A DNA stretch of 64,000 nt from Haliotis rufescens (Eukaryota), in contig NW_025964372.1 of assembly GCF_023055435.1 (NCBI RefSeq), positions 41,602,001 to 41,666,000 of the forward strand. Direction: 5' to 3'. The notes beneath the pieces were generated by a model. That model ran no database searches. It worked only from the letters and a program-made list of their open reading frames with translations, and was not told the origin of the DNA. Numbering within the stretch: position 1 is the first letter of the stretch; every line of letters begins with the position of its first letter. Below, piece by piece: positions 30,548 through 61,849 of this stretch. A program made the position numbers and the translations under genes.

Positions 30548-30640
30548 GGGATGCCCCGGCACGAGAGGGGACACAACGTCTCACTCTCTCTCGCAATAGC
30601 TTCAACCAAAGATTTAGGAATTTCGGATTTTCGGATTTCA
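30548..30640 (-). promoter_or_regulatory. kB-like site GGGGCATCCC and (TCCGAAAA)2 motif upstream of A1
   Basis: 30548-30557 matches GGGRNWYYCC on the - strand; TTTCGGATTTTCGGATTTC at 30621-30639. Confidence 0.5.
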
Positions 30641-31229
30641 AAACTGATATAAAGGCGGAGTTTGGCAAAATGGTGTGTATGTGAAAGAGATTATAATAGA
30701 CCTATGTGGGGGGTTATACCTCTTATCGTGCATTTTAAGTTTGTTGTCACACACTATGACCAACAATAATAAAGAAATAACATCACAGCAGTGTCGATAA
30801 TTGACGTGTGGTCACAAAAGGAACCTGCGGTTCAGTATGCCGCTCACACATGTAGATAAGAGCAGTGAAGTTGTCACTGCTCTCTTATCTACATGTGTAA
30901 GCGGCAGCCTAAAAACTGAAAGAACAAGACCATAGAATGGATCAGAACTTGATGTTAGACGTGTCAGCAATACGAAAATGTCAATGATTGGACTATAATC
31001 ATGATTGGATCTTCTTCAGCTGTAGTCAAGTCGTCCACACGGACAGACGGACACACTATCATACCTCTTCCAAATGTCCACTGCAAGGTCCACGTATCAT
31101 GAATTTTGTTGACAATAATTTCACATACATTCTAATTGTTGACTTTCTACGCCTTGTAAAACATCTTTCAAACGCAGGTAATGTGATGATCAACAACATT
31201 TCTATTAACAGTTCGTTCGTTACATCCAT

Positions 31230-32765
31230 TTCAGTTTCCGGAATTTCAGATTGCGAATGACAGAAGAACCCAATTAGTTATCACTTGCACATTCTTCCGC
31301 GTGAGGGGCGGTAGGGTAGTCCAGTGGTTATAATGTTCGCTCGTCACGCCTAAGACCCGGGTTCGAATCCTCACATGGGTTCAATGTGTGAAGCCCATTT
31401 CTGGTGCCCACCGCAGTGATATTGCTAAAATATTGCTAAAAGCCTTCACTCATTCTCTCTTCCCCGTGTTCATATGAGGCAGAGTGACTAGTCGTTTCGA
31501 AGGACGGATGGATAATTAGCAATTGCTCAACTATAATGTCTCTCTGGGATGATAATTGTAATAATGTGGTCTCCAGCTAGAGCTGCACTACAGCGTTTCT
31601 ATTGCTCTTGATATGTAGAATATCTGTGAAACAACTGAACATGTATGTTAAGCTAGGGCAGATAAAATGTGTAGCTCTGAAGCCCAGATGACAGTAAATC
31701 ATGCATGCTGACGGTATCTTATATAATTAGTGTGAAACGTAGCATGCAGAAAATGTAATCTTCGATTCGCTGATGTTATTATTCAGTCGCTCAGGAAAGA
31801 TAAATTTCGTTGCACAGACCAAACCTAAGCACCCACCCATCGTCAGCTACACAGAATTATAATTCTACTACATTTGTTACATGTAGGTTACAGTCAACGT
31901 CGCATATCATATCACACACGAGGTGAAGAAACGATATATATATCCTGTTACTATATATGACATTTGTTCCTTTCTCAATACCAGTTTATCATCAGTTGGT
32001 GTGTGGCATTGTAAAGGAATGACATTTGGAAACACACGTACTTGACCTCATGGAATACAATTCTTCAATTACGTCATCTTTAAATAAAACCCGTTCTGTA
32101 ATTGGAATAGATCTCGACTTAACGCATGTCATAAGCATGTGCTCAATGTGTTCAACTTCAGTGAAAGCAAAAGAAAACGCTGAACACAAATGAAATCATT
32201 GTACCGCTCTGTGCCGGTCACTGGTGGTTAATATGAAAGGATGGGTTATCTTTCGTGCCAATTCTCGGGAAAGAACAAAAGACTCAAACACATTCCTTGG
32301 TGTGTGGAACTCAAAGGTTGTATACTTGTAAACATTTTTGATAGCCGTTAATATATAACAGTAATCGCATCTTTACCAGTCTTTCACATGTACAAACATC
32401 AACAATATTGAGAAAGTCCTGCATTCACATATACATGTGCACACATTGAACACATTCATGCACTGGAAACATATGATGCAACCCCTGACGTCCCTCTCTG
32501 ATCCCAGCACATCCTTACCTTATGCTCGTATTATCAGCATACTACACGTAGGTCACCAAACATTGTATTCCTGACACCACCGTAGCGTCATGTCTTTACA
32601 TATAATAGTTCCTTGTATGTCCCACGACACTTAACATGCATGACACGAAGTATGACCCTTATATGTGTCACACTGTGATGGCCGTCTCTTTCACATGCAC
32701 TGCAGTTGATAAAGGAGGCCTACCCGATATCTAAATCCTGACAAGCATGATCTAATATTCCCCAT
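31230..32765 (-). pseudogene. Relic DD-family gene with intact myristoylation exon
   Basis: Exon 32765-32724 reads MGNIRSCLSGFRYR|gt. Exon 2 (~32268-32208) has lost its acceptor and has a TGA. A very decayed DD (IVEQ..HPS; KNxQVIT.WVLL) is interrupted by a SINE. Confidence 0.6.
31305..31457 (+). mobile_element. tRNA-derived SINE (family C) with 11-bp TSD
   Basis: A box TAGTCCAGTGG, B box GGTTCGAATCC; TCTTCC(G/C)CGTG at 31293-31303 and 31458-31468; copy at 53508-53679. Confidence 0.8.
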
Positions 32766-34305
32766 GATCATTTTCCCATCTTCGAATCCGCAGCGTGTGA
32801 TATTGTGACACAGCTAACACAATGTAGCCAGCCCAGTTTATACATGCATACCTGATGGGGGGGGACTCCCTTGTACAATTTACCGGCACACTGTAAATCT
32901 CAGACGTATGTAATCAACAAATTACTGTCATTTCTCTAAATCACGGACTTCGGATTTCCGGATTTTCGGCTATGAATCGCCATGTCATTCAGTTACATAG
33001 TTGTCACAACAGGGGGGATATGTTTTCATTCATACTCAGTGGTTATAGGCTGCTTATCAAATCTTCTCAATGTCAACACCACGTGGAGTAAGCTGTCTAC
33101 TTCAGACGCCGTAAAAGCGTGTTTGATCATAGTATTGAGACGAGAGAAGCCATATTATTACCAATAAAACTCGTATATATGATTTGTTTCTTTTGTATAT
33201 ATGTGTGATGAGGTTTTATTTTACTCGAAAAGCGTAAATTCGTGTGGGATAACACACAATATGTTGATGTTGAGCAGTATATCAATCAATATAAGTTATG
33301 GTGTATCAATTAATTGTCTCCTATCATGGGAATCCGGTAAAGTGGACAGGCACACTGACACGTATGCAGGATTTCTGCACTTTCCTCACTTTCTCCAGTA
33401 ATAATGATGATATTAGTGTTAGATTGTCAGATGTTTTCCTGTCGTTTCCGGAGTGAATGAACTTTTCAATTTCATTCGAAAATATGACGCAATTTTGCAT
33501 ACTCTCACTGCAGATACTAATCTATCTATCGAACTAGGGACTATTCTGGTTTGTCTGAAATGGGGGTTGTCTGTGGGCACTACGCAATAAAACGAAACGA
33601 AACGAAACACACTTCGGGCAGCTATATGGCAGATAGTTCATGCAAGATGTGAACAAGACAATCCGACAATCCGACATAGCATATGACGTTTCGTTTGTTT
33701 GTCAAAATCAGTTCATAACACTGTGGTTGAGACAAGCAGTTAGTTCTAGGTAGGATACGGACCTCATGTTATACTACTCATCAGGCATTTAGTACAGGCT
33801 GCCCCCTGAGGTATATATGAAAACTAAGTGGTATTAAATGTAATGGAGATGAAGGAAACTCCCTTACAAACAACATGAAGGTTTATCTGAAAGCATACGA
33901 CGCCGTTGGGTTCGGATGACACCAACACAGCTGAATGACCAACTCTGACCACCTGATTCGCTCCAGTCAGCTCTTGCAGCAATCATAGGATACTGGTGCC
34001 TTATTCATCACCGGATTATACACAGGGCAGATGTAATGTAGTATAATCACATGATCATCATCAGTAGCATAAGCTGGGACGCTTGAAACTACTATCAGAC
34101 TGCCAGTAACACCACGTAGACTAACATAGACTCAAACATCCATATGTGCAATGTATAAATGAACAAAAAACCCTGTAGTTTTAAAAAGCAACATTTATTC
34201 GTGAAACATAAGGAAATATCAAACATGTACGTTATTCTTAACATATACTAGAGCAGTGAGTCGACAGTGTTGTTGTTATTTTAGGTGTGCACTACGAATG
34301 ACACA

Positions 34306-35429
34306 CTAAGTCGATGGTGATTGGAGAATGTTTAGTATGGCATCCATTTCGAGCGTACATCTACCTCTGCATCTCCACAACGCTCTGACGAGCACAAGGC
34401 CAGTGGCAGATCTGCCATTCCTCTCCTTCCACTTGGTGAGCATGTGTAAGGTCTGCATATAAAGTGAAGTTGGGTGTGAAACTTTGCCTTGTTCGATCAC
34501 CACAAGATTGAGTCCAAGTTCGATTCCAATAGATTCAAACCCGATCCCAATATGATTTGCCACCAGGCTGACACCTTTCTGAGAAACAGGGATTCTCAGT
34601 CTTTCCTCATTTACAGGGCCTACAAAACAAATTAACATCACGTTTTATGATTTAAAAAATGTGAATGAAAATTATAGATGAGTTTGCGTTTTGAGTAATT
34701 TTGTTTTTGTCTTTTCAAACTTACATTTTAACAAACACCTTACAAATCAGAACAGATACGGAAAGTATGTTGCGAGACATAGTACATCTTAATATATGCA
34801 GAGGAGAATACATATTCTCTCCACGTCTACAGTATAGCATATGTGTACTTAAGATATTATGCGACGTTCATATTGCATATTTAACATAATCAAATTGATC
34901 AAGATGAAAAGGACATATTCAATGACATTAAATAAACGAACCTGTCAATGTGACCAATGGATTATATGAACGGATCATCTGGTTGTGTGGCTGGTGAAGT
35001 CTCTGGAAGGGAGATGTTTATACCATCACATGTCATGTATAAAATTAAATGTTGCAAGCTTATGTCATANNNNNNNNNNNNNNNNNNNNNNNNNNNNNNN
35101 NNNNNNNNNNNNNNNNNNNNNNNNNNNNNNNNNNNNNNNNNNNNNNNNNNNNNNNNNNNNNNNNNNNNNNNNNNNNNNNNNNNNNNNNNNNNNNNNNNNN
35201 NNNNNNNNNNNNNNNNNNNNNNNNNNNNNNNNNNNNNNNNNNNNNNNNNNNNNNNNNNNNNNNNNNNNNNNNNNNNNACACACACACAGAAATAAAGACA
35301 GACTGTATAAGACCATGCAACCACAAACGTGCACATCGACATGCAAACAATGAGCTCGTTAGTTTCTAATAATTAAAGTTCACCTACCCGATACCCAAAT
35401 CCGGACCAGCATGACACATAATTCCCCAT
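34306..35429 (-). CDS. Myristoylated death-domain-only protein A2
   Basis: Exons 35429-35388 (MGNYVSCWSGFGYR), 35002-34942 (RLHQPHNQMIRSYNPLVTLT), 34619-34306 (GPVNEERL..DD..QSPST). Intron 1 contains an N-gap. Confidence 0.85.
35070..35277. other. Assembly gap
   Basis: Run of N. Confidence 0.99.
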
Positions 35430-35492
35430 TGTCGGCTCTGTACATACGTTTTACCCTCTGCTTTACTGATCTGCTGTCCGTTCAATCGCTTG

Positions 35493-35526: not shown

Positions 35527-35745
35527 CTAAACTTGTCGACAAAAATTACTGTTGCAGATAAGCGGCCGCGAGTTTATCGACGGGCGTTTATTGAAGCAAG
35601 ACGCGAGAACGCGAGGTCTTTCCCAGGGTGTAGCATCTAAGAAGACTGAGAGGTAATGCATGCTATACATCATAAATCCGAAAATCCGACTTGTTGTACA
35701 TTCACTTCACAATGTCAACTAGTTAGCGGAAACGTCTTTAGGCTG

Positions 35746-35961: not shown

Positions 35962-38900
35962 AGCTCAGTGGGATATAACAACATAGCGAAGAGCTTCACT
36001 TGAACTGATTGTGAAGGCGGAACATTCTGCTGTTTGATTGACCTCGATGTGAACAGACAGCAGTTGAATCATCTCACATCTACTCCCTACACATCAAGTT
36101 GTGATTAAAGTGACATGCGTGATAATAAAGGAATATCTGCTATACACTCATCCTGTTGAATTGAATGTACTGGTTACAAAGAGGAATATAGAAAATGGCT
36201 ATAGTGTACAACAATGTCACATTATCCCAAATAGACTCAATATATTATGTTTTAGATATGATACTGACGTTACAGTTGATGAAGTGTTATTATTAAATAA
36301 CTGACAATTGAATAACTATTCTGAAATGCATTGATATTTTTGAATGGACATGTGAATAAATCCAGTTGAAACAGAGAATCTCTGATTGACTGTGTCGGAT
36401 TTTCGGACTAGCTAAGTCACGAGACAAGTAAACGTTCTTGTCGTCTCTTGATTGACTTGGCGATCGACTACGCCTGTCCTATACTTTTTTTTTATCGAAA
36501 AGTACAGCATGAGTAGTATTTCATTTTAGTTGTTTTCATAATTATATTGTAGGTATTTTACATGAGTAAAATTTTAAACTCCCCCTTTTGACAATGTTAT
36601 TGACCCAGGGGGTAAAAAGCACTTAACATCCACGTTAGTGTTCCTGGATATAATGTTAGTATTATGTGACGTACATTAGTGTAGAAATAGTACAAACTAT
36701 ACAAACATCTCGTTCTAGTGATGTTTCAAAGTGAATGTCACGTGGAACAATATGCCTTCAGCTTCGACTTATGTCATCTACATTTCCCTGTTGCTTATGT
36801 ACTTAAACGCATGCACATATCATTCAAATGTCCTGGAAAGACACATTTTTCTTACATCTAAGCTTAAATTCAATCAAGATTCGGCATCACAGGCCTGATC
36901 AAGTCATCCCAGAAATAGGAAATAAGGTAATCTTTTTACTAAATATGACATGCTACCTGTCAAAATCATTTGCAATTCTATCCCTTATAATTACTATGAC
37001 CTTTACAGGGAGATTTCACACCTCCTTACTCACTTACTTAAATGGATCGGGTGGTCATGCTTGGTGACTTGGTTGACAGCGTGGAGTAGTAACCCGACGA
37101 CGTGAGTCATTGCTCATGATAGTGATCCCTGGATTCTTTGGTCGAGACTCGATACTTTACAGGCCACCGTGATATGTCAAGAGTATAGCTGGTAGCGGCA
37201 TTTGGCNNNNNNNNNNNNNNNNNNNNNNNNNNNNNNNNNNNNNNNNNNNNNNNNNNNNNNNNNNNNNNNNNNNNNNNNNNNNNNNNNNNNNNNNNNNNNN
37301 NNNNNNNNNNNNNNNNNNNNNNNNNNNNNNNNNNNNNNNNNNNNNNNNNNNNNNNNNNNNNNNNNNNNNNNNNNNNNNNNNNNNNNNNNNNNNNNNNNNN
37401 NNNNNNNNNNGTGTTTGAACGAACAAAAGACAAACAACAACTTCAACATTTTCATGAAGATGTTTCTGCAGAATGTTCCCTTCGCAAAACTGAAATTTGA
37501 AAAGGATCATATGTTTTTATATCCAGGAAATACTTAATGGGGCAAATTTTACGAGTTGAATGGGCGTGAAAGCATGAATAGCTGCATAAGAGGAAAAATA
37601 GTGGTGGTGTGGATTGGCATACAGGAGAAATGAGACAAGCATGCTGTTAACCAAAGTAAATCGTCTCGTGCACCAATACACGTGAATGTGTTTGCTTTTC
37701 AATAGTACATAATATGATATGAACTTATACACATTAACAGGTCATTTTGCGTTGAGAGCTCAATGGGATATAACAACATAGCAAAGAACTTCACTTGAAC
37801 TGATTGCGAAAGCGGAACCTTCTACTGTTTAATTGACCTCGATGTGTACGTACAGCAGTTGAATCATCTCACATCTATTTTCTATACATCAAGTTTTGAT
37901 AAAAGCGACATGGGTAATAATAAAGGAATATCTTCTAATATTTTCCTCCTATTCATTTTAATGTACTGGTTACAAAAGAATATCTGGGTAATAATAAAGG
38001 AATATCTGCAAATATATCGTCCTGTTCAATTAAATGTACTGGTTACAAAGAGAAATATCGAAAAATGGTTACAGTATACAGCAATGTCACATTAGCCAAA
38101 TAGACTCAACATAATATGTTTTAGATATGGTACTGAGGTAACGGTGCTGCAGTCCGCATTGGTTATTGCAGAGCATGTGTCGGATCTTAAATAACTGACA
38201 ATTGAATAACTATTTTGAAATGCATTGATATTTTTTAATGGAATTTTGACATGTGTTATTATTAAATAACTGACAATTGAATAACTATTCTGAAATGCAT
38301 TGATATTTTTGAATAGATACGTGAATAAATCCAGTTGGAACGGAGAATCTCTGATTGACTGTGTCGGATTTTCGGACTAGCTACGTCACAATCGCCGCCG
38401 ACAAGTAAACGTTCTTGTCGTCTCTTGTACCGGGTCTCGACTACTTCTGTCCTATACCCTGAAGCTGAGATTGTTTTGTCGAAAAGGTACAAAGTAAATA
38501 GTATTTCATTTCAATGGTTTTCATAGTTAGAGTGCAGGTATTTTACATGAAGTAACATTTTAAACTCCCGCTTTTGACAATGTTATTGAACCCAAGGGAT
38601 AAAATGTATATGTGACATACATTAGTGTAGAAATGGGACAAACTATACAAACATCTCGTTCTAGTGATGTTTCAAAGTGAATGTCACGTGGAATAATATG
38701 CCTTCAGCTTCAACTCATGTCATCCATATTTCCCTGTTGCTTGTGTACTTAAACGCATGTGCATATCATTAAATTTCCTGGAAACACACATTTTTCTTAC
38801 AACTAAGCTAAACTTAAATCAAGGTTCGGCATCATAGGCCTGATCAAGTCATTCCAGAAGTAGGAAATTAGGTAGATTTTTTTACGAAATATGACATGCT

Positions 38901-39150: not shown

Positions 39151-40409
39151 ACAAACAGCTTACATCTTTTATGAATTTTATGAGTGTGGCGGGTGCTTCT
39201 GGTAGAGCATTACATGCTAATCATTCTGTGGAATACCTGGTGTCATCACTGATTTCCAGTGATCCATTCATATACTTTTCATCACTATTTCATCTTTTCT
39301 ATGCATAAAAATGTGACAGTGTTTCAGGCTTCTCTATTATTGAGAATATGACTTGTAATTTTGTCATTCGAATACTTTGTCAAGATATTTGTAGAATGTA
39401 GGGGAGCATATTATTGAATACATAAAATCGGATTTTCGAAACAACTAGATTTGTCACCCCTACAACTCTGTTGCAATGGTGCATAGATATGAATGCAGTC
39501 ACTTATTGTCCAAATGTTTTATGGTAAAAGTGTAGAAGACTGGATAGAATAGTCATTTCCTTGTCTGTGACGGGTGCCACCAGTGGCACCTTTTCGCGAA
39601 CTTCTGGTATCATCTCTATTTGATTTCATACCTGAGAACCACTATAGCCCATGACCAGTATTTGCAAACTTCCAACCAGGAAATATTCTTACAAATAGAA
39701 TACAGCTACTATAGAAAGTAAAACACTGATTGTAGTCCATAATCAATCAGCAAGATTCTACGACCGGCAAACCCTTGTGAAATTGTTCAAAAGAAGAGAC
39801 AACAGATAAACAGTAAACTTGGAACAACATAACACACATAATTTGACTGTTCAATCGTGACCGGACATTGTGGGTCAAATGGTTATGTGAGACGCAATTA
39901 TGTCTCCGGATTTTCGGATTATGGATGACGTTTAGGCCACATGTATTCATCCCTCGCTAGTTCATCCTCAAATAAAAAAGACAGAAAGACAAGTTGTTAC
40001 AAAAGGCATCACAGCAATTTATTAAAAGCCTTTATTCCCAACACATACACATAGAATCACAATGTATTACAAACGGAAAAGATATTACTGTATAAATGAA
40101 GAGTGTTCAGTGTGCAACTTGAGGAAACAGAAAATCAATCAGATCAGTCAGGATCCCAAATTATGTACAAAAGCCTCAGTGAACCTAGCATCTCGACTCG
40201 ATATTGCAAAGCGGGAACCCAATCAATCAATGATAACTGTACATGAGAAGAGTGTTCAGTGCAGCGCTCGTATATGAGAGAACATAAATGTAGACATGAT
40301 TTCTCTGTATGTGGTCGTGGAAACTCAGTGAAGTATTACTTATATACCCACTCGTGTATTCACAGCATAAAGCAAGACAGTGTCATGTGAAAACAGCTCT
40401 TCGACTTGA

Positions 40410-41573
40410 TTACACAGACACAGTGGACGGTCCCTGAAGGATGTTGAGAATGTCCTCCCACTCAATGGTACACTTGTCATTGCATCTCCACAGTGCTCTG
40501 ACGAGGAACAGGCTGGTTGCAGTTCTTCCGTTCTTCTCCTTCCACTTTGTGAGCATGTGTACAACTTGCATGTACAGTGAACATGGATGTGCAAAAGTCA
40601 CTTGTTCGATAACCACGAGAGTAAGTCCAAGTTCGATGCCAACAGACTCGAACCCGATCCCGATGTGACTTGCAACAAGGCTGAGATCTCTTCCAGATAC
40701 AGGAGTATCCAACATCTCTTCATTTACAGCATATGCTTGGTTCCAGTGTGTTGGCCCTACAACATTAAACTCACAATAAACTACCTATTTACTTGTGTTC
40801 ATTTTGTTTGATAGATGATGTTACAACATTCAGTTCACATTCATTATTCCAAATTAGCTTCACTAAACAAAAAAATATGGTACATACATTAAGTAACGTA
40901 AACAGAAATCATTAGGTACACATAGAACTAAACTCCCTGAATTATAATAAGACAAGCAGATTGTTTAAATTCAATAAAACTAAAACATCAAACTAAAAGG
41001 CGACTGTGCTTGTTGTAAGAGGCGACTAACAGGATCGGGTGGTAAGGCTCGCTAACATGTTTGTTGCATGTCATCGTATCCCAATTGCGTAGATCGATAC
41101 TCATGATGTTAATCGCTGGATTATCTGGTCCAGACTCGATTATTTACAGATCGCCGTCATATAGCTGGAATATTGCTCAGTGCGACATTAAACAACAAAC
41201 AAACAAAAAACAAGCAAACAAAATAACAAACAATGTGATTTAACGTACATGTAACTCTCTCTGTCAGATTGGGTTCATTTTGGCAGTTCATCGAGTTCTC
41301 TGAAGTGGACAGTCTCTGGAATCGAAAAAACACAGTTTCAAACACGATTGATAGCTACACCAGCATAGCAATAAAACAATAAGGATAATCTTACATAAAC
41401 TAAACAAGACAATGCAATGACAAATTCTCTTGAACATGTACACACGCATAATAAACATTAACACGCTAATGTTCGAATAGGGAAAGCACGTGAAATATGC
41501 CTATGGCTGTATACATAACATCTTGACCCACCTGATATCGGAATCTTGGCCAGCATGAAACAGTATTACCCAT
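40410..41573 (-). CDS. Myristoylated death-domain-only protein A3
   Basis: Exons 41573-41532 (MGNTVSCWPRFRYQ), 41315-41249 (RLSTSENSMNCQNEPNLTERVT), 40756-40410 (WPTHWNQAYAVNEEMLDTP..DD..GPSTVSV). Confidence 0.85.
40997..41215 (+). mobile_element. SINE (family A) in A3 intron 2, absent from B3
   Basis: Matches 15064-15320; (AAAC)n tail. Confidence 0.8.
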
Positions 41574-41879
41574 GCTGTCTGTAATTATGCCTCTACTTCA
41601 CACATGTGTATCCCACAGCCAGCTGACACAATCTGATAGTTTCGACTGTACTGATATAGGCTTTATATATCGGAATAGCATAAGGGGATTCACCTTTTTG
41701 TTGACAAGATGTGGTGTGGTACATTTGCAGTCACAGGCATATGCTACAGTCAACTTACAACCGATTTTCGGATCGCAGATCGCGGAGTTCGGATTTAAGG
41801 ATTTCATTCGCCATATCAGGCTGATGGGTATGGGTAAAAAAGGCCGATGATGATGCAGGTGAAGGGACAAGAACTTAGT

Positions 41880-42730: not shown

Positions 42731-43762
42731 GAAAACGATATGTATAAATCGGTGTGTGTAGAAATCTGACACTGGTATATGATACATTAAAAGTGAACCT
42801 TGTTTAAACCGATCGATCATGATAAAAATCCTTGATCCGAAAATCCGAACAAGGCTATAAATACATGTCGCTGTAGGAACTGTTCATACCGGAATGTATA
42901 CATTGTGTCAGGGCTTTTCGGGAAGGCTGGTTGGATATATGATGTCATACTCAAGTTGATCACAGTACATAGGAAATGAGGGGAAATGTGAGCAGTGATG
43001 TGGATTGGGATATTGAGGAAATGATATAATACGTTGTTATCTACATTCATATGTCTCATCATATAAGTGTGCACCAAAATACTTGAACTTGTTTATTTGT
43101 CAATAGAGCATAAGATAATCATGCAGTGATCAATACGTAGTGTAAAATTGACTTACGCCAGAATATATACAAATGATACCCTTACTAAGCTATGAGTACA
43201 TAACAAAGAACTTCCTTTGAACTTATTGTCTAGTGGAACGTTCTACTGTTTGATTGATGTCGATGTGCATGGGAAGCAATTTAGTCACCTCGCATCTACT
43301 CCTGATGCACCTCACGAAGACTGGGGGAGCATGTGAAGATAGAAGCGACAGAATCTTTTTCATACTTATATAAGAAAATCGGGTAAAAAGAAAGAAGGTT
43401 AGAAAGAAGAATATGAAAAATGGTTGTAGTATACATGTATAACATTGTCCCAGTATCTCAAATAAACTCGGCATTATATGGTTAAGATATCGTACCCACC
43501 TCACATAAGTGAAGTGATCATCAGAACAAGTGTCAGATATTAAGTAATTGGAACTGCAGGTTCGGTTTGAACGTACAATGTCTGATTGAAGGTGTCGGGT
43601 TTCCGGTCCAATGATGTGAAATGTTCAATTTACGAAAAAAATATATTTACCTTATCCTGTACCAGGACACTGGTTAGGTTAAATGGCTTCGATCGACTAC
43701 GTCTTTCATATATGTGCTCTCTCTTAAGTCGAGACTGCTTTATCGAAAATGTTAAGTAAAAA

Positions 43763-44259
43763 CTATTTCAATTTATTACTTGCCCGTGAAGAGATCCCAA
43801 TGTGACTTTCAGATACAGGGATATTCAGCCTCTCTTCATTCACAGCATATGGTTCGTTCCCGGGTGTTGTACCTACAAGAATCATCTCACAATAAGCATG
43901 TGTTCACATGTGAGGTGAGGTGAAATTGGGTTTGACGTCGCGTCCAAGATTCCTGCACTTATATAGCGACGTGCATGCACGTGTATGTGTGTGTGTGGGT
44001 GCTTGTACTAGTCCGGACTGACGCCGATTTATAGTGCTAGCTCACTGAGATACCATGCCGCAGTTTAACATGAATACCCCACTCAGACACAGTATACTGA
44101 CTCCGAGCCGACCAGTCCTTGTTTTAGCCCCTTAATGCCGAGCGCCAGACAGGGTAACAACAAGTACAATCTTTTCACGTCTTTTTGTATGACGCGGCCC
44201 GGGATCGAACCCTGGACCTTCCGCTCTCCGGGCGGACGCTCTACCACAAGACCACGGAG

Positions 44260-44311
<52 letters not shown>

Positions 44312-44877
44312 GTATATTTACTGTCAATGTTTAAATTCCCTATCAATATTCTACGTTATTTTAACTTATCTTAAGATTAAATTCACTCAAAAACCAAAGA
44401 GAAAAACATATTGTTAATGTATCACAACGTGTAAAGAAAACGTTTGGGTGGACGCACAGACAATGGGAATAATGTCAAGCTTGCATCTGATAAAGCATAA
44501 CGTGACACACTATCCATATCTTACATTTAGTAAATCGATAAATGCGACTGAACGTACCTCTCGGTTCGAGCTGATGGTTATAATAGCAGGTTATGTGGTC
44601 GTCTGTCTTGGACATTTTCTGGAATCAAAATGAACACAATGAGGCATATTCCTGGTGACGCTTGGATCCCACATATTGTAAACTTTAAACCAGTTTTAAA
44701 CCACGATTGAGAGTTGTAGCGTCACAAGAAGTAGGGTAATGTTACATTCACTAGTATGCATAAATAAACATAAAGTCGCAATTGCACGTGTACATATTCA
44801 TTAATTGTTAAGAAAATACGTGAAGGGAATATTACCTGATATCTGAATCTTGACCAGTATGAAACAATATTACCCAT
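43763..44877 (-). pseudogene. DD-truncated paralogue A4 (myristoylation exon and linker intact, DD deleted)
   Basis: Exons 44877-44836 (MGNIVSYWSRFRYQ), 44618-44558 (KMSKTDDHITCYYNHQLEPR), 43872-43763 (GTTPGNEPYAVNEERLNIPVSESHIGISSRASNKLK*). Confidence 0.75.
43915..44260 (-). mobile_element. tRNA-derived SINE with Meta-like central domain
   Basis: GGTCTTGTGGTAGAGCG..GGTTCGATCCC head followed by GTCATACAAAAAGAC..CCTGTCTGGCGCTCGGCATTAAGGG; related fragments at ~27230-27330 and ~49100-49200. Confidence 0.7.
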
Positions 44878-44992: not shown

Positions 44993-45090
44993 GGGGATTC
45001 CCCCTGCTTGCTGTGCGGGAATTGTTGTAGGCCCTGTGAGGCACAGGTGACAATCTTGTTCCAGCTCTCGGACTGCGGATTTTCGGGTTT
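44993..45090 (-). promoter_or_regulatory. kB site GGGGATTCCC and TCCGAAAA-type motif upstream of A4
   Basis: Perfect kB consensus at 44993-45002; CGGATTTTCGG near 45076. Confidence 0.55.
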
Positions 45091-51168: not shown

Positions 51169-52278
51169 TCACTGCAGGATGTTGAGAATGTCCTCCCATT
51201 CGATCGTGCATCTCTCTTTACATGTCCATAGTGCTTTGACCAGGTCCAGATAGGTGGCCGAACTGCCATTCCACTGCTTCCATTTAGTGAGTATAATCAA
51301 GATCTGCATATACATTGAACATGGGTGTGCAACTCTGCCCTGTTGGATAGCCACAACGCTGAGCCCAAGTTCAATCCCGATATACTCAAATCCCATCCCG
51401 ATATGTCTCGCAACAAGTCCGAGATCTCGTGGAGTTACAGGAGTCTTCAGTCTCTCGTTCACACAGCGTTTTGAACCTACACGGAAATCTGTATTACTTG
51501 ATGTAACACTAATTCTACCACAAAGGCTCACATAAACAGGTTTCTTTCTGTTTTGTGTGATTGACATGTGGTATCGAATGAACCTTTATTCATCTCCAAT
51601 GCTCATCGATATTCCAAATAAGTAATACAAATTGACAGAAAAAGAAGTTGCACAAATCTTCCCATATACATATATGTCATCATAATAACGATCAAAATAT
51701 GTTGAAAGTTATGCTGAACACATATGGCATATATTGCCAAATTTCTGAAATGAAATCATCAAATCATGATAAAGAATGTCGCGCAAAATTATCAATTTAA
51801 TGGGCAGTTATAATTAACGCACCTCTGCTTATGATCTGTTCGATCAGCTCGTTGCTTGACTGGTGCATTCTCTAGAACGAAAAACACACACAATCAATTG
51901 TGTGTCAAGATGACATGCTGTAGTATTTCCTGAAAGGCGTTGAACTCAAATACAGTATTATTCTTCAGGTGGGATCAAACTTCCCCTCTATAACACTTAA
52001 TATGGGATGATAAACTTCCACACAATAATACTGAATATGGAATGATAAACAGAGACAATGTCTGCCGGAACAGGAGTGAGTATATAAAGACTTTGAACCG
52101 TATGTTCGTTACCTTATATCCACTATTAAGCATATATACAGAATGCCACACGTGTAGTGTTAAATGATGTGTACATATATTACTACCATTATTGCACCTT
52201 AATGAACATATCTAAAAGGGCGTTATTAAGACGTACCTGCCACTGAAGTCCGGAGAAGCACGAGGCAATGTTCCCCAT
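51169..52278 (-). CDS. Myristoylated death-domain-only protein B1
   Basis: Exons 52278-52237 (MGNIASCFSGLQWQ), 51871-51823 (RMHQSSNELIEQIISR), 51476-51169 (DD). Confidence 0.85.
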
Positions 52279-53429
52279 GCTGCCTATTCATGTATGACAC
52301 TGACGTACACCACTCTGTGTGTTCCAACTGGTATGACTAAATCAAAACCTCTAAGCTATATGTGAGCACAGCGGGACGCCCCGGCACGAGAGGGGACACA
52401 ACGTCTCACGCTCTCTCGCAATAGCTTCAACCAAAGATTAAGGAATTTCGGATTTTCGGATTTCAAAACTGATATAAAGGCGGAGTTTGGCAAAATGGTG
52501 TGTATGTGAAAGAGATTATAATAGACCTATGTGGGGGTTATACCTCTTATCGTGCATTTTAAGTTTGTTGTCACACACTATGACCAACAATAATAAAGAA
52601 ATAATATCACAGCAGTGTCGATAATTGACGTGTGGTCACAAAAGCAACATGCGGGTAAGTATGCCTCTTACACATGTAGATAAGAGAGCAGTGACAACTT
52701 CACTGAGATGCCTTTCTCCACTACGTCCAGCTGTTCAGTCAATAACCAAGCCAGCCCTTTCAAGGTTTCATGACTTATATGTTAGTCTTGCAACGAAGAC
52801 AATAGACATGGGAATATTGTCACAAAAATAGTCTTTTAAAAAGGATAATAGGTCTCAATCTAAATAAGTATCTAGAAATCATGACAATATCTGTGATAAT
52901 GCAAGACAAAACTAAATACATGTTGTGTACAAAAGCTGTGGTACATTGTGGGTACTGGGTGACCTGGTCAACGTGTAGGATATATGTGGGCGTTGTTTTG
53001 GCATTGATATGGAATACCGGCTAGCATAAATATGTAGCATGTTTAAGGAACATATTGCTGTCTACAGCTATTTTCTATATATATTAGGCTTTGTAAACTG
53101 CAATCAGCAGCCTAAAAACTGAAAGAACAAGACCATAGAATGGATCAGAACTTGATGTTAGACCTGTCAGCAATACGAAAATGTCCATGATTGGAATATA
53201 ATCAAGATTGGATCTTCTTCAGCTGAAGTCAAGTCGTCCACACGGACAGACTATCATACCTCCTCCAAATGTCCACTGCAAGTTCCACGTATCATGAATT
53301 TTGTTGACAATAATTTCACATACATTCTAATCGTTGACTTTCTTTGTTCCTACGCCTTGTAAAACATCTTTCAAACGCAGGTAATGGGATGATCAACAAC
53401 ATTTCTATTAACAGTTCGTTCGTTACATC

Positions 53430-54928
53430 AATTTTCAGTTTCCGGAATTTCAGATGGCTAATGACAGAAGAACCCATTTAGTTATCACTTGCCCATTCTT
53501 CCCCGTGAGGGGCGGTAGGGTAGTCCAGTGGTTACACTGTTCGCTCGTCACGCCTAAGACCCGGGTTCGAATCCTCAGATGGGTTCAATGTGTGAAGCCC
53601 ATTTCTGGTGCCCACCGCCGTGATATTGCTAAAATATTGCTAAAAGCTGCGTAAACATTACACCATCACTCATTCTCTCTTCCCCATGTACATATGAGGC
53701 AGAGTGACGAGTTGTTTCGAAGGACGGATGGATAATTAGCAGTTGCTCAACTTTAATGTCTCTCTGGGATGATAATTGTAATAATGTGGTCTCCAGCCAG
53801 AGCTGCACTACAGCGTTTCTATTGCTGTTGATATGTAGAATATCTGTGAAACAACTGAACATGTATGTTAAGCTAGGGCAGATAAAATGTGTAGCTCTGA
53901 AGCCCAGATGACAGTAAATCATGCATGCTGACGGTATCTTATATAATTAGTGTGAAACGTAGCATGCAGAAAATGTAATCTTCGATTCGCTGATGTTATT
54001 ATTCAGTCGCTCAGTCAGCTATACAGAATTATAATTCTACTACATTTGTTACATGTAGGTTACAGTCAACGTCGCATATCATATCACACACGAGGTGAAG
54101 AAACGATTTATATATCCTGTTACTATATATGACATTTGTTCCTTTCTCAATACCAGCATATCATCAGTTGGTGTGTGGCATTGTACAGGAATGACATTTC
54201 GAAACACACGTACTTGACCTCATGGAATACAATTCTTCAATTACGTCATCTTTAAATAAAACCCTTTCTGTAATTGGAATAGATCTCGACTAAACGCACC
54301 TCATAAGCATGTGTTCAATGTGTTCAACTTCAATGAAAGAAAAAGAAAACGCTGAACACAAATGAAATCATTGTACCGCTCTGTGCCGGTCACTGGTGGT
54401 TAATATGAAAGGATGTGTTATCTTTCGTGCCAATTCTCGGGAAAAAACAAAAGACTCAAACACATTACTTGGTGTGTGGAACTCAAAGGTTGTAGACTTG
54501 TAAACATTTTTGATAGCCGTTAATATATAACAGTAATCGCATCTTTACCAGTCTTTCATATGTACAAACACCAACAATATTGAGAAAGTCCTGCATTCAC
54601 ATATACATGTGCACACATTCGAACACATTCATGCACTGGAAACATATGCTGCAACCCCTGACTTCCCTCTCTGATCTCAGCACATCCTTACCTTATGCCT
54701 GTATTATCAGCATACTACACGTAGGTCACCAAACATTGTATTTCAGACACTACTGTCTTTATATATGATAGTTCCTTGTTTGTCCAACGACACTTAACAT
54801 GCATGATACGAAGTATGACCCTTATATGTGTCACACAGTGATGGCCGTCTCTCTAACATGCACTGCAGTTGATAAAGAAGGCCTACCCGATATCTAAATC
54901 CTGACAAGCATCACCTAATATTCCCCAT
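53430..54928 (-). pseudogene. Relic DD-family gene (copy B), with stop in exon 1
   Basis: 54928-54887 reads ATG GGG AAT ATT AGG TGA (MGNIR*); same SINE-C insertion in the DD relic. Confidence 0.6.
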
Positions 54929-56479
54929 GATCATTATCCCATCTTCGAATCCGCAGCGTGTGATATTGTGACACAGTTACCACAACGTAGCCAGCCAAGT
55001 TTATACATGCATGACTGATGGTAGGGGACTCCCTTGTACAATTTACCGGCACATTGTAAATCTCAGACGTATGTAACCAACAAATTACTGTCATTTCTCC
55101 AAATAACGGACTTCGGATTTCCGGATTTTCGGCTATGAATCGCCATGTTATTCAGTTACATAGTTGTCACAACAGGGGGGATATATTTTCATTCATACTC
55201 AGTGGTTATAGGCTGCTTATCAAATCTTCTCAATGTCAACACCTCGTGGAGTAAGCTGTCTACTTCAGATGCCGTAAAAGCTTGTTTGATAGCCGTGTGA
55301 TGAATGGAGATCAGGTTGTAGAAAAAGGAGGAACGTTTTTACCATAAGTGACTACAGTATTGAGACGAGAGACGTCATATAATACCGATAAAAGTCTTAT
55401 ATGATTTATTTCTTTTGTATATAGGTGTGATGAGGATTTATTTTACTCGAAAAGTCTTAAATCGTGTGGGATAACAGACGAAATGTTGATGTTGAGCAGT
55501 ATAATCAATCAATATAAGTTATGGTGTATCAATTAATTGTCTCCTATCATGGGAAACCGGTAAAGTGGACGGCACACTGACACGTATGCAGGCTTCCTGC
55601 ACTTTCCTCACTTGCTCCAGTAATAATGATGATATTAGTGTTAGATTGTCAGATGTGCTCCTGTGGTTTCCGGAGTGAATGAGCGTTTCAATTTCATTCG
55701 AAAATATGACCCAATTTTGTTAAGCAACTGGCATACTCTCACTGCAGATACTAATCTATCGAACTAGGGACTATTCTGGTTTGTCTGAAATAAGGAGTGG
55801 CTGTGGGCACTACGCAATAAAATTTAACGAAACGAAACACACTTCGGGCAGCTATATGGCAGATAGTTTATGCAAGATGTGTACAAGACAATCCGACAAT
55901 CCGACATGGCATATGACGTTTCGTTTATTTGTCATGTTATACTACTCATCAGGCATTTAGTACAGGCTGGGCCCTGAGGTATATATGAAAACTAAGTGGT
56001 ATCAAATTTAATGGAGATGAAGGGAACTCCCTTACAAACATAATGAAGGTTTATCTGAAAGCATACGACGCCGTTGGGTTCGGATGACACACACACAGCT
56101 GAGTGACCAACTCTGACCACCTGATTCGCTCCAGTCAGCTCTTGCAGCAATCATAGGATACTGGTGCCTTATTCATCACCGGAATATACACAGGGCAGAT
56201 GCAATGTAGTATAATCACATGATCATCATCAGTAGCATAAGCTGGGACGCTTGGAACTACCATCAGACTGTCAGTAACACCATGTAGACTAACATAGACA
56301 CAACATCCATATGTTCAATGTATAAATGAACAAGAAAAAACTATAGTTTAAAAAGCAACACTTATTCGTGAAACATAAGGAAATATCAAACATGTACGTT
56401 ATTCTTAACATGATCCATTTACTAGAGCAGTGAGCCAACAGTGTTGTTGTTAGGTCAGGTGTGCACTACGAATGACACA

Positions 56480-57772
56480 CTAAGTCGATGGTGATTGGAG
56501 AATGTTTAGTATGGCATCCATTTCGAGCGTACATCTACCTCTGCATCTCCACAACGCTCTGACGAGCACAAGGCCAGTGGCAGATCTGCCATTCCTCTCC
56601 TTCCACTTTGTGAGCATGTGTAAGGTCTGCATATAGAGTGAATGTGGGTGTGAAACTTTGCCTTGTTCGACCGCCACAAGATTGAGTCCAAGTTCGATTC
56701 CAATAGATTCAAACCCTATCCCAATATGATTTGCCACCAGGCTGACACCTTTCTGAGAAACAGGGATTCTAAATCTATCCTCATTTACAGGGCCTACAAA
56801 ACAAATTAACATCACGTTTTATGATTTAAAAAATGTGAATGAAAATTATAGATGAATCTTGCGTTTTGAGTAATTTTGTTTTTGTCTTTTCAAAATTTCA
56901 TTTTAACACACACCTTACAAATCAGAACAAATACGGGAATATAGTACATCTTAATATATGCAGAGGAGAATACATATTCTCTCCACGTCTACGGTATAGC
57001 ATATGTGTACTTAAGATATTATGCGACGTTCATATTGTATATTTAACATAATCAAATTGATCAAGATGAAAAGGACATATTCAATGACATTAAATAAACA
57101 AACCTGCCAATGTGACCAATGGATTATATAAACGGATCATCTGGTTGTGTGGCTGGCGTAGTCTCTGGAAGGGAGATGTTTAGACCATCACATGTCATGT
57201 ATAAGATTAAATGTTGCAAGCTTATAAGATTAAATGTTGCAAGCTTATGTNNNNNNNNNNNNNNNNNNNNNNNNNNNNNNNNNNNNNNNNNNNNNNNNNN
57301 NNNNNNNNNNNNNNNNNNNNNNNNNNNNNNNNNNNNNNNNNNNNNNNNNNNNNNNNNNNNNNNNNNNNNNNNNNNNNNNNNNNNNNNNNNNNNNNNNNNN
57401 NNNNNNNNNNNNNNNNNNNNNNNNNNNNNNNNNNNNNNNNNNNNNNNNNNNNNNNNNNNNNNNNNNNNNNNNNNNNNNNNNNNNNNNNNNNNNNNNNNNN
57501 NNNNNNNNNNNNNNNNNNNNNNNNNNNNNNNNNNNNNNNNNNNNNNNNNNNNNNNNNNNNNNNNNNNNNNNNNNNNNNNNNNNNNNNNNNNNNNNNNNNN
57601 NNNNNNNNNNNNNNNNNNNNNNNNNNNNNNNNNNNNNNNNNNNNNNNNNNNNNNNNNNNNNNNNNNNNNNACGCGCACATCGACATGCAAACAATGTACT
57701 CGTTAGTTTCTAATAATTAAATTCACCTACCCGATACCCAGATCCGGACCAGCATGAGACATAATTCCCCAT
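56480..57772 (-). CDS. Myristoylated death-domain-only protein B2
   Basis: Exons 57772-57731 (MGNYVSCWSGSGYR), 57164-57104 (RLRQPHNQMIRLYNPLVTLA), 56793-56480 (DD). Confidence 0.85.
57251..57670. other. Assembly gap
   Basis: Run of N at the same intron position as the 35070 gap. Confidence 0.99.
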
Positions 57773-58748
57773 TGTCGGCTCTGTACATACGTTTTACCGT
57801 CTGCTGTGGGGATCTGCTGTCCGTTCAATCGCTCGCTATTTATGTAGGCTTTGTGAAGGGGATTTCCCTGAACTCGTTGAATGATTGTATACGGTATAGG
57901 TCAGGTCATCTTCAAGTCGGATTGTACGAATTTGTTCATCCACTATAGAATGTACTGTTTGATAATAACAGCTTCATGGACACTGACATTTTATTCGAGT
58001 CATCCCATACTACAAATAGCAGACTTGTACATTTGTCTTTAATGAATAATAGACTTGTTGGAATTGACATGCAATGACATAACTATGTTGCCTGAAATGA
58101 CTATTGAATGAAATTAAAACATCCTTGAAACATATATATGTATAACGTAAAACATTGTTATGTGAGTATTCAGTTTAGAGTACAGGGGGATGAACGGTGT
58201 AAGAATCATTTATCTCACAATAATTTCTGTTGCAGAAAACCAAAACAGCCGCGTGTTTATAGACGGGCGTTTATTGAAGCAAAACGCGAGAGCCGCGAGG
58301 TCGCGACACTTGAACAATGTCGCGTTCTCGTGATTTTAAGTCAATTGCCTATACAGTTATATGTCACTATTTTCGAAAGCGCGAGAACGCGAGATCGCGA
58401 CACTTGACCAATGTTGCAATCTCGCGTTCTCGTGCTTTTGTGTCAATTACCCATACAGTTATATGTAAATTCATTTGCCAAATCTCGCGTTCACGGGATC
58501 CCGCATTCTCCTGTTTAGGGCATAGTTAGCTCGTTTCGCTGTGATTAGACAAGGGTAAAACAACAGTATTATGCATGCAATATCTTTCCCAGGGTGTAGC
58601 AACTAAGATGACTGAGAGGTTATGCATGCTATACATCATAAATCCGAAAATCCGACTTGTTGTACATTGTACAATGTCATCTAGTTAGCGGAAACGTCTT
58701 AAGGCTGTGTGTGTGTGTTGTTTTGTTTGTGTGTGTCCGTGTATGTGC

Positions 58749-58798
<50 letters not shown>

Positions 58799-60800
58799 CG
58801 TGCGTGCGTGAGTGCGTTCACGAGTGCGTGCGTGTGTGTGTGTGAACGTACAAATGACCAACAACAACTTCAAACATTTCATGAAGATTTTTCTGCAGAA
58901 TGTTTCCTTCGCAAAAAAATAAATTTGAAAAGGACCACATTGTATTATATCCAGGAAATACTCAATGGGACAAAATTACGAGTTGAATGGGCTTGAAAAC
59001 ATGTAGAGGTACAGAAGAGGGAACAGTAGTGGTGGTGTGGATTGGCATACTGGGGAAATGATACAATCATGTTGTTAACCAAAGTAAGCTGTCTCGTCAT
59101 GTAAGTGAGCACCAACACACTTGAAGGTTGTCCTTTTCAATAGTACACAATATAAGATGAACATATATAGGTGAGTAAGTCAGTTCGCATTGAGAGCGAA
59201 ATATGACATGCTGCCTTTGAAAGTGATTTGCAATTCTATCCCATACTGTGACCTTTACAGGGAGATTTCACACCTCCTTATTCACTTACTTAAATGGATC
59301 GGGTGGTCATGCTTGGTGACTTGGTTGACAGCGTGGCGTAGTAACCCGATGATAGTGATCCCTGGATTCTCTGGTCGAGACTCGATACTTTACAGGCCAC
59401 CGTGATATGTCAGGAGTATTGCTGGTGGCGGCATTTTGCAACAACAAATAGCTTTTATTAAATTTGTGAGAGTGGCGGTTGCTTCTGGTAGAGCATTACA
59501 TGCTAATCATTCTGTGGATTACCTGGTGTCATCGCTGATTTTCATTGATTCATTCATTTACTTTTCATCACTATTTTGATATTTTCCATGCATAAAGAAA
59601 GTGACAGTATTTCAGGCTTCTTTATAATTGAGATCATTACTTGTAATTGTGTCATTCGAATTCTTTATCAAGCTAGTTGTAAAATCTAAAAGGGTATATT
59701 ATTGAATACATAAAATCGGATTTTCGAAACAACTAGAATTTTTACCACTACAAATCTGTTGCAATGGTACATAGATATGAGTGCAGTCACAACTTTATTT
59801 ACGCATGTTTCGTCATTACGCCAATCTTTTCCGCTATCCCTTTGCAGTCAGCATGCAAAAGCTTTCACATATTATCCTTCGATAGTTGTCTAAATGTTTT
59901 ATGGTAAAAGTGTAGAGGACTGGAGAGGATAGCCATTTCTTTGTCTGTGACGGGTGCCACCAGTGGGACAGGATACCTTTTCGCGAATTTCTGGTATCAT
60001 CTCCATGTGATTTCATACCTGAGAACCACTACCGCCCATCACCAGTATTTGCAAACTTCCAACCAGGAAATATTCTTACAAATAGAATACAGCTACTATA
60101 GAAAGTAAAAAACAAATTGTCGTCCATAATCAATCAGCAAGATTCTACGACCGGCAAACCCTTGTGAAATTGTTCAAAATAAGAGACAACAGATAAACAG
60201 CTCACTTGGAACAACATAACATGAATACTTTGACTGTTCAATCATGACCGGACATTGTAGAGTCAAATCATATTGTGAGACGCAATTATGTCTCCGGATT
60301 TTCGGATTACGGATGACGTTTAGGGCGCATGTAATCATCCCTCGCTAGTTCTTCCTCAAATATCACAAGAGACAGAAAGACAAGTAGTTACAAAAGGCAT
60401 CACAGCAATTTATTAAAAGCATTTATTCTCAACACATACAAATAGAATCACAATGTATTACAAACGGAAAAGATATTAATGTTCAAATGAAGAGTGTTCA
60501 GTTTGCAACTTGAGGAAACAGAAAATCAATCAGATCAGTCAGGATTCCAAATTATGTACAAAAGTCTCAGTGAACCTAGCATCGCGACTCGATATTTCAA
60601 AACGGGAACCCAATCAATCAATGATAACTGTACATGAGAAGACTGTTCAGTGCAGCGCTAGTATATGAGAGAACATAAATGTAGGCATGATTTCTCTGTA
60701 TGTTGTCGGGGAAACTCAGTGAAGCATTACTTATATACCCACTCGTGTATTCACAGCGTAAAGCAAGACAGCGTCAGGAGCATACAGCTCTCCGACTTGA

Positions 60801-61731
60801 TTACACAGACACAGTGGACGGTCCCTGAAGGATGTTGAGAATGTCCTCCCACTCAATGGTACACCTGTCATTGCAACTCCACAGTGCTCTGACAAGGACC
60901 AGGCTGGTTGCAGTTCTCCCGTTCTTCTCCTTCCACTTTGTAAGCATGTGTACAACTTGCATGTATAGTGAACATGGATGTGCGAAAGTCACTTGTTCGA
61001 TAACCACGAGAGTAAGTCCAAGTTCGATGCCAACAGACTCGAACCCGATCCCGATGTGACTTGCAACAAGGCTGAGATCTCGTCCCGACACAGGAGTATC
61101 CAGCATCTCGTCATTTACAGCATATGCTTGGTTCAGGTGTCTTGGCCCTACAACATTAAACTCACAATAAACTACCTATTTACTTGTGTACATTGTGTGT
61201 GATGGATGTAACAACACTCAGTTCGCTTTCATTATTCTAAATTAGCCTCACTAAACAAAAACAAAAAATACGACCCGTCCATCAATTCATCCACTCATCC
61301 ATATGGTAATGTGGAAAAAATCATTGTGGTACTCATAGAGCTATACTTCCTCAAATATTATAAGACAAACAGATCGTTTCAATTCAATGAAACTAAAAAA
61401 ATGAAACAATGTGTTCCAACGTACCTCTCTCTGCCGGGTCGCGTTTATAATGGCAATTTATCGAGTTCCCTGTGGTGGTCAGTCTCTGGAATCGAATAAA
61501 CACAGTTTTAAACACGATTGATAGCTACACTATCATAGCAATAGATCATCTTACATAAACTAAACTAAACAAAACAATGCAATAACAAATGCACGTGTAC
61601 ACACGCCGACGCGCATTATAAACATTGATACGTTAACGTTCGAATCGGGAAAAGACGTGAAATAAGCCTGTGGCTGTATATATACCCACCTGATATCGGA
61701 ATCTTGACCAGCATGAAACATTATTAGCCAT
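60801..61731 (-). CDS. Death-domain-only protein B3 (Gly2->Ala, predicted non-myristoylated)
   Basis: Exons 61731-61690 (MANNVSCWSRFRYQ), 61485-61425 (RLTTTGNSINCHYKRDPAER), 61147-60801 (GPRHLNQAYAVNDEMLDTP..DD). Confidence 0.85.
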
Positions 61732-61815
61732 GCTGTGAGTATCTTTGCTTCTACTTCACACACGTGTATCCCACAGCCAGCTGACACAGTCTGATACTGT
61801 CGACGGTTCTGACAA

Positions 61816-61849
61816 TCTTTATATATGGTAGTAGCATAAGGGGATTCCC
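61816..61849 (-). promoter_or_regulatory. TATA box (TATATAAAG) and kB site GGGGATTCCC upstream of B3
   Basis: kB consensus at 61840-61849, about 15-20 bp upstream of the TATA box. Confidence 0.55.

Follow-up and report, generated by a model that had tools for sequence, protein, structure and literature searches.

A cluster of death domain (DD) genes in a 64,000-nt stretch of Haliotis rufescens DNA (GCF_023055435.1, contig NW_025964372.1; hereafter the window, whose coordinates are used throughout) was found to carry two recurrent promoter elements, a proximal kB-like site and a paired-CpG 12-mer. The genes are arranged in tandem and encode the DD without other domains, and with somewhat better than even confidence the cluster is read as a set of probable NF-kB-inducible immune genes whose products are predicted to be lipid-anchored decoys of DD adaptors. 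As judged from the shared promoter elements, the genes are likely to be co-activated during infection. A proximal kB site and a cluster of decoy death-fold genes are both of known kinds; a putatively acylated DD-only family and a cluster-wide 12-mer were not found in the literature searched, where the mollusc DD and CRADD reports do not contain the word myristoylation.

All nine first exons are read from the minus strand; their ATGs are at 30454, 32765, 35429, 41573, 44877, 52278, 54928, 57772, and 61731, and no tenth first exon was found in the window by regular expression or blastn. Self-comparison showed that 26810-43703 is duplicated at 48669-63497 (a duplication of ~22 kb; identity is 90-94% over most of it and falls to 73% in some blocks), and the nine promoters were assigned to five paralogue classes: A (30454/52278), B (32765/54928), C (35429/57772), D (41573/61731), and E (44877). 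The nine promoters share one ancestor and are not nine independent cases. Intact genes consist of a 42-nt exon 1, a 49-67-nt exon 2, and a DD-encoding exon 3 with compatible splice phases. An intact DD reading frame follows six of the nine first exons; the others (B1, B2, and E1) head relics, and exon 3 of E1 is shortened by a deletion and an early stop. The first-pass annotation of this DNA had counted nine recognisable start exons beginning MGN; all nine are present, in only five classes and with three heading relics, and the D2 exon at 61731 begins MAN instead. The C1 product is identical to the H. rufescens RefSeq proteins XP_046344830.2 / XP_048247914.1 (P0009). The ~22-kb repeat may have arisen by recent tandem duplication, or it may represent two haplotypes that the assembly placed one after the other. 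Read depth in a DNA run from a related organism suggests several further D-like copies.

The kB-like decamers that had been reported 86-116 bp upstream of each ATG were confirmed at all nine + strand positions. Scored on both strands against GGGRNWYYCC, seven of the nine match exactly and two (41684 and 52373) carry one mismatch; the distances from the low coordinate of the site to the A of the ATG are, in order, 94, 96, 88, 111, 116, 95, 96, 86, and 109 bp. Outside these promoters the window holds 3 exact and 43 one-mismatch sites, and the chance per 32-bp window outside promoters is p=0.0015 for an exact and p=0.022 for a one-mismatch site; the fifth power of p is invalid as a test of independent origin because the classes share descent. 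TATA boxes were found at the four places noted in the first pass and at a fifth (55000-55005), with weaker ones at A1, A2, and C2. A TATA-like box is located 12-18 bp downstream of the kB site in 8/9 promoters, and the "fixed position" claimed for the site describes this spacing better than the distance to the ATG. An initiator-like sequence follows TATA by ~31 bases in A1/A2 and D2. In C, D2, and E the site takes an 11-bp, symmetric, G-rich form. Sites of 11 bp with 3-4 terminal G are reported to form a single, most stable complex with the p50 homodimer, and the MHC H2 11-bp p50 site is the known counterpart of this form (PMC9262625). The 11-bp form thus hints at a p50/p105-type reader. The promoters resemble those of NF-kB primary-response genes (IkB-alpha, A20, IL-8, and IFN-beta with its PRDII element) in the kB consensus, in the single site shortly upstream of TATA, and in the 11-bp G-rich symmetric form (three classes); unlike those genes, the abalone genes are only predicted targets and belong to an undescribed mollusc family. 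Three further exact kB matches lie outside the promoters (33854-33863, 56022-56031, and 47824-47833); the first two, ~130-190 bp from a 12-mer variant and between gene C and promoter B, resemble a distal module.

Conservation of the site was measured by anchoring one promoter per class (five classes) on the kB site. Identity was 0.69 in the 11-mer vs 0.24-0.32 in four flanking blocks, and exon 1 identity across classes was 0.63-0.76 (two choices of representatives). Between-class flank alignments were mostly no better than shuffles (p<=0.05 in 5/20). The earlier remark that the flanks are barely alignable and the site persists therefore holds between classes, and the kB site outlasts its surroundings, with all copies sharing descent. 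The consensus, the position before TATA, and the retention across classes make the proposal that the genes are direct NF-kB targets a fair one, as a prediction.

A stronger signal than the kB site, missed in the first pass, is a 12-mer with the 11-mer core CCGAAAATCCG, which was noticed as a block upstream of the kB site in the promoter self-alignment. All 14 occurrences of the core fall in 26.8-64 kb and none in 1-26.8 kb; the expected count is about 0.007, with a range of 0.006-0.012 over Markov orders 1-3. When the first cluster copy is taken by itself, CGAAAATCCG exceeds its expected count more than any other 10-mer (9 seen vs 0.022 expected). With the motif masked, the surroundings align between duplicates only; this leaves the exact core in 8 unrelated contexts, a number that rises to 11 when one mismatch is allowed. 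A one-mismatch match at 27486, which lacks the second CpG, was excluded from the 11-row matrix. The 12-mer or a one-mismatch variant is found within 150 bp upstream of the kB site in 8/9 promoters, 60-95 bp upstream in seven of them and inverted at 150 bp in C1. Further copies are intergenic or lie just past the D poly(A) signals, and arrays of 2-4 CCG half-sites, mostly of period 7-8, number 20 in the cluster vs 0 in the control stretch. Duplicate pairs differ at 3 of 120 motif positions vs 12.3 expected from the flanks (p=0.002; p=0.14 with the rate halved for ascertainment). In the DNA run from a related organism, three 12-mers fall in low-copy DNA, with depths of 177-460 in their bins vs 20,000-238,000 in true repeats. 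Three contigs of that run align only through a 34-base island around the 60293-60326 copy, one of them also via a DD exon, which at the likeness setting used is suggestive only.

Read from the opposite strand, the motif consists of CGG half-sites in direct repeat, at a CpG spacing of 6 nt, and CpG-pair spacing peaks at 6 in both cluster copies (11 hits in one and 9 in the other, where the control stretch has 1). Human DEAF1 selects repeated TTCGGG half-sites with a CpG spacing of 6, 8, or 9 (PMC4274154), fly Drosomycin and Metchnikowin require DEAF1 (PMC3750155), and in open chromatin and regulatory DNA of mosquitoes REL-type motifs are accompanied by motifs of the Deaf1 type (PMC5640250, PMC6322293). 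The abalone element shares with the DEAF1 plus Rel modules of insects (Metchnikowin, Drosomycin, Anopheles) the CpG half-sites 6 nt apart, the TTCG second half-site (10/11 contexts), the arrays of 2-4 half-sites, and the proximity to kB. It departs from them in that many copies are intergenic, and in three ways that count against a DEAF1 assignment: TT precedes the first CpG in 3/11 contexts only, the sixth base is A (11/11 first and 9/11 second half-sites) vs G in the human consensus, and the spacer is nearly invariant where that of DEAF1 is free. By its sequence, the motif resembles a paired-CpG SAND-type site, with a partial fit to the DEAF1 consensus. No comparable mollusc element, and no relevant report of the 11-mer (in both orientations) or of a fly DEAF-1 motif, was found in the literature searched, as judged by title.

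If the kB site is real, the 12-mer could instead be read by another factor (IRF-like through a GAAA core, ETS-like, or new) or be the remnant of a transposon sub-terminal repeat. The invariant spacer and the sixth-position A speak for this, as do the GAAA cores within the motif, the short CCG repeats that DNA transposon ends bear, and the 34-base island, which a small repeat could also explain. It is nevertheless judged unlikely, if worth keeping in mind: no canonical GAAANNGAAA occurs at any 12-mer, the contexts lack flanking homology and three are in low-copy DNA, the transposon-rich first 26.8 kb holds none, and the motif is retained while its flanks drift. An element of the ISRE/IRF type was rejected on the same absence of GAAANNGAAA, which near the first exons is matched at 44905 only, and on the period, which is 8 in the 12-mer and 6 in an ISRE. 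A heat-shock element was rejected by inspection, alternating GAA/TTC pentamers being absent, and membership of a high-copy repeat was rejected on the unrelated contexts and the low depth given above. We consider it probable, with moderate confidence, that a second factor reads the CGG direct repeat near promoters and between genes and cooperates with NF-kB; that this factor is DEAF1 is a tentative suggestion, held with less than even confidence. The cooperation is proposed by analogy with that reported for DEAF1 at insect immune genes, and the factor would prime or boost the whole cluster from its paired-CpG sites.

The predicted products are 134-149 aa long, with ~35 low-confidence residues followed by the DD, and PF00531 (Death) is the sole domain on record; exon 3 scored above the Pfam cut-off in 3/3 exons scanned. 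A structure model built from 46 sequences had a mean pLDDT of 86, with the first 30 residues below 60. Its best fold match was the RAIDD DD (Foldseek; E 1e-4, TM 0.87), with RIPK1 and TNFR1 at E 0.07-0.1 only. A profile compared with solved structures gave 21 matches, with ankyrin DDs, CRADD, and PIDD at the top and then FADD (E 0.004). Among the 43 top relatives scanned for multidomain architecture, 13 were Roc-COR-DD and 6 CARD-DD proteins, and the named ones were mostly molluscan. Single-domain relatives that were aligned are 19-35% identical, and the only longer form found is an N-extended model. Four Haliotis species (H. rufescens, H. cracherodii, H. rubra, and H. asinina) account for all the close relatives found. 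Glycine at position 2 with serine or threonine at position 6 is the N-myristoylation consensus, and an adjacent Cys7 adds a palmitoylation pattern. Gly2 and Ser6 are present in 7/9 first exons, six of them with Cys7 alongside, and an MG start was found in 0/54 small distant DD relatives. The family is thus made up of Haliotis genes that have three exons, encode only the DD, and are predicted to begin with a myristoylation signal.

The CRADD/RAIDD and PIDD DDs (PDB 2o71, 2of5) provide the best fold match and are among the best sequence matches, and some members are named "CRADD-like" in databases. Unlike CRADD and PIDD, the abalone proteins have neither a CARD nor LRR/ZU5 domains, are 24% identical, and carry a predicted acylation leader instead; orthology to CRADD/RAIDD was rejected on the missing N-terminal CARD. 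The primate CARD-only and Pyrin-only proteins (CARD16/17/18, POP1/2) are alike in being lineage-restricted, duplicated, few-exon genes with a single death-fold domain. Those proteins are described as non-enzymatic decoys, and POP2 is induced by LPS and TNF (PMC3775265). The abalone proteins, as putative decoys, differ from them in having a DD rather than a CARD or PYD and a predicted lipid anchor.

The proposed mechanism starts with infection, on which NF-kB would be activated and an NF-kB dimer would bind the kB site roughly -45 to -60 from the start, beside TATA; this step is held with good confidence. That Gly2/Ser6/Cys7 direct myristoylation and palmitoylation, placing a bare DD at a membrane, is also likely, if slightly less so. 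That the protein, which has no CARD, DED, TIR, or kinase, binds a DD partner belonging to its own clade and damps it is plausible at a little under even chances. Within that step the likeliest partner would be the CARD-DD adaptor CRADD/RAIDD or the Roc-COR-DD proteins, rather than MyD88/IRAK; FADD- and RIP-type partners, and hence IMD or TNFR signalling, could also be engaged.

With the same promoter logic, the proteins could instead have an activating role: once induced, DD seeds anchored at a membrane would nucleate a platform of CRADD/caspase-2 (or FADD) in place of PIDD. The DD is nearest the RAIDD/PIDD/ankyrin group, its weakly supported clade also takes in CARD-DD proteins from Haliotis and other molluscs, and nucleation is favoured when a lipid anchor concentrates a domain on a surface. 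Molluscs are described as having CRADD without detectable PIDD, and the same source reports PIDD absence for all lophotrochozoans (PMC11463336), whereas the family is found only in Haliotis. Rapid duplication and loss, together with the loss of Gly2 in D2, would fit a tunable modulator better, and the activator role is considered unlikely. Its boldest extension is very unlikely: that abalone evolved an inducible membrane-anchored PIDD replacement, lipid-tailed DD seeds firing CRADD/caspase-2 under NF-kB and a locus-wide paired-CpG element, the latter being the first candidate DEAF1-type (or new-factor) mollusc immune enhancer code.

The first-pass annotation had proposed that these NF-kB targets feed back on Toll/IMD/TNFR complexes through MyD88/IRAK-, IMD/RIP-, or TNFR-type DDs. 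This possible choice of partner is the least supported one and is rated improbable, the DD being closest to the ankyrin/RAIDD/PIDD group and not to MyD88/IRAK. A membrane anchor would put the DD beside receptors, FADD at the E value above, TRADD, RIPK1, and TNFR1 DDs are weaker matches, and feedback genes of NF-kB, IkB-alpha and A20 among them, typically carry proximal kB elements. However, MyD88, IRAK, Tube, and Pelle were absent among the 21 PDB sequence matches and the fold matches listed, and a scan of 60 relatives showed neither a TIR nor a kinase family, those of three long proteins being hidden.

For transcription, four sequencing runs were compared with 59200-64000. In one of the three RNA-type runs (X20), four contigs were confined to D2 exon 3 and its 3' UTR (60481-61147), one of which stops precisely at 61147, the predicted acceptor, and has 67 unaligned letters before that point; these contigs fit spliced family mRNA. 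In the DNA run X13, codon 2 of D2 reads Gly, and the Ala in the window is likely derived because of this reading. Six of the gene ids were absent from the paper texts searched, and supplements of other abalone challenge studies could hold induction data; the genes were also absent from the text and three supplement files of a heat-stress meta-analysis.

Besides the departures from the DEAF1 consensus given above, several observations weigh against the reading of the cluster as inducible decoy genes. The evidence from the nine promoters, with their one ancestor, is retention and not independent gain. Aligned paralogue promoters placed the kB site above its flanks across classes and not between recent duplicates, where 3 changes in 55 kB positions (including one extra non-promoter pair) are not visibly fewer than in the flanks. 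The D1 site has lost a G, the E1 promoter (44993) has no clear TATA, and C2 has no 12-mer within 300 bp of its kB site, the nearest being displaced to 776 bp. The 12-mer control was a single stretch of 26.8 kb (1-26.8 kb). The RNA type of X20 was guessed and the run is from another organism; it has no depth over D2 exons 1-2 or the proximal promoter and no joint to exons 1-2, X24 covers repeats only and not the D2 gene, and the small-RNA run X21 gave no aligned reads there. D2 itself lacks Gly2. A quick tree of 69 of 160 proteins recovered the family as one clade (support 99) and did not resolve its sister, and a near-identical full-length parent, unlike those of the CARD-only and Pyrin-only proteins, was not found next door or in databases. 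The three promoters that head relics retain their motifs, as recent decay would also give.

This retention before relic genes and the lack of excess conservation between recent duplicates suit the view that the decamer is not read by NF-kB, being a G/C-rich core-promoter element (zinc-finger/EBF-type) or passively inherited, with constitutive or tissue-specific genes. Passive inheritance is excluded at class level, where flanks are at the 0.24 background and the site is near the coding exon in identity, and class variation stays within the kB consensus, on either strand, in 7/9; this view is as improbable as the Toll/IMD/TNFR loop. Among 40 of 264 rows of cross-species variants none fell in the kB site or 12-mers, which proves nothing, and the promoter contig of organism B differs at 3/235 bases, too close for power. 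The D copies show complementary decay, D2 having a perfect kB site and Ala at codon 2 (61726-61728), by which myristoylation is predicted to be lost, and D1 having Gly and a broken kB site. The B promoters (32724-32970 and 54887-55133) are the most complete, with an exact kB site, TATAAA, and a four-half-site array, yet head an orphan exon 1. Gene A could use this exon as an alternative to its own exon 1, because all first exons are 42 nt long and in the same phase. The RefSeq model P0005 begins at a Met in A exon 2, and such a product would be without the lipid anchor. The coordinates of genes and motifs are given in Table 1.

Table 1. Genes, kB-like sites, and 12-mer motifs of the cluster, by window position
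Feature	Position	Strand	Remarks
Gene A1	29298..30454	-	exons 30454-30413, 30001-29953, 29605-29298 (DD)
B1 orphan first exon	32724..32765	-	42 nt, donor intact; no exon 2 or 3
Gene C1	34306..35429	-	exons 35429-35388, 35002-34942, 34619-34306
Gene D1	40410..41573	-	exons 41573-41532, 41315-41249, 40756-40410
E1 relic	43777..44877	-	exons 44877-44836, 44618-44558; exon 3 from 43872, end approximate
Gene A2	51169..52278	-	exons 52278-52237, 51871-51823, 51476-51169
B2 orphan first exon	54887..54928	-	stop at codon 6; no exon 2 or 3
Gene C2	56480..57772	-	exons 57772-57731, 57164-57104, 56793-56480
Gene D2	60801..61731	-	exons 61731-61690 (Ala at position 2), 61485-61425, 61147-60801
kB A1	30548..30557	-	exact on gene strand only; weak TATA-like box 30531-30536
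kB B1	32861..32870	-	exact; TATAAA 32837-32842
kB C1	35517..35527	-	exact, 11-bp form; TATA 35495-35501
kB D1	41684..41694	-	one mismatch in G run; TATA 41663-41669
kB E1	44993..45003	-	exact 11-bp near-palindrome; no clear TATA
kB A2	52373..52382	-	one mismatch; weak TATA-like box 52356-52361
kB B2	55024..55033	-	exact; TATAAA 55000-55005
kB C2	57858..57868	-	exact; TATA-like 57837-57843
kB D2	61840..61850	-	exact 11-bp near-palindrome; TATA 61818-61825
12-mer TCCGAAAATCCG	30624..30635	-	65 bp upstream of kB A1
Array of four CCG half-sites	32944..32970	-	periods 8, 8, 7; upstream of kB B1
12-mer variant, one mismatch	33662..33673	+	between gene C1 and promoter B1; ~190 bp from kB match 33854-33863
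12-mer, inverted	35677..35688	+	150 bp upstream of kB C1
12-mer, intergenic	36396..36407	-	local duplicate at 38365-38376
12-mer variant, intergenic	39429..39440	-	copy at 59717-59728
12-mer	39907..39918	-	~110 bp beyond D1 poly(A) signals
Two degenerate 12-mers	41761..41801	-	66 and 95 bp upstream of kB D1
12-mer, intergenic	42836..42847	+	same as 62593-62604 though flanks 21% different
Array of three CCG half-sites	45069..45087	-	72 bp upstream of kB E1
12-mer	52449..52460	-	65 bp upstream of kB A2
Array of four CCG half-sites	55107..55133	-	upstream of kB B2
12-mer, inverted	58643..58654	+	776 bp from kB C2; insertion relative to C1 between them
Array of three CCG half-sites	60295..60313	-	beyond D2 poly(A) signals
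12-mer variant	61911..61922	-	one mismatch in 11-mer core; 60 bp upstream of kB D2
12-mer, intergenic	63734..63745	-	

Homology between C1 and C2 ends 12 bp upstream of the C2 kB site. Runs of N are present at 35070-35277, 35746-35961, 37207-37410, and 57251-57670, of which two fall within the first introns of C genes beside simple repeats, and short high-copy repeats lie between genes at 59291-59351, 59942-59976, and 63898-63963 (summed depth 5,000-238,000 in the DNA run). Outside the cluster, a long ankyrin-repeat reading frame occupies 20461-24383 (+), with ~26 copies of 99-bp units and frame breaks near 23200-23800. Long inverted repeats (94-98%) at 10358-12327 and 15971-18185, with 170-bp tandem units and ~3.6 kb enclosed, form a foldback-like element, and a 379-residue open frame without a Pfam match at 8904-10040 is probably transposon-derived.

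A kB site before an immune gene is ordinary; here duplication acted as natural footprinting, in which five diverged promoters retain two elements and little else, and the second element is far more enriched than kB. The cluster offers a compact, testable model of a mollusc immune promoter, the abalone promoter-reporter literature searched being mainly on heat-shock genes. If a DEAF1-type factor reads the 12-mer, lophotrochozoans would share the Rel-plus-DEAF1 logic known from insects. As putatively acylated members of the RAIDD/PIDD group, the DD-only proteins are candidates for CRADD control in animals reported to be without PIDD, and the DD-only genes are candidate markers of the abalone disease response.

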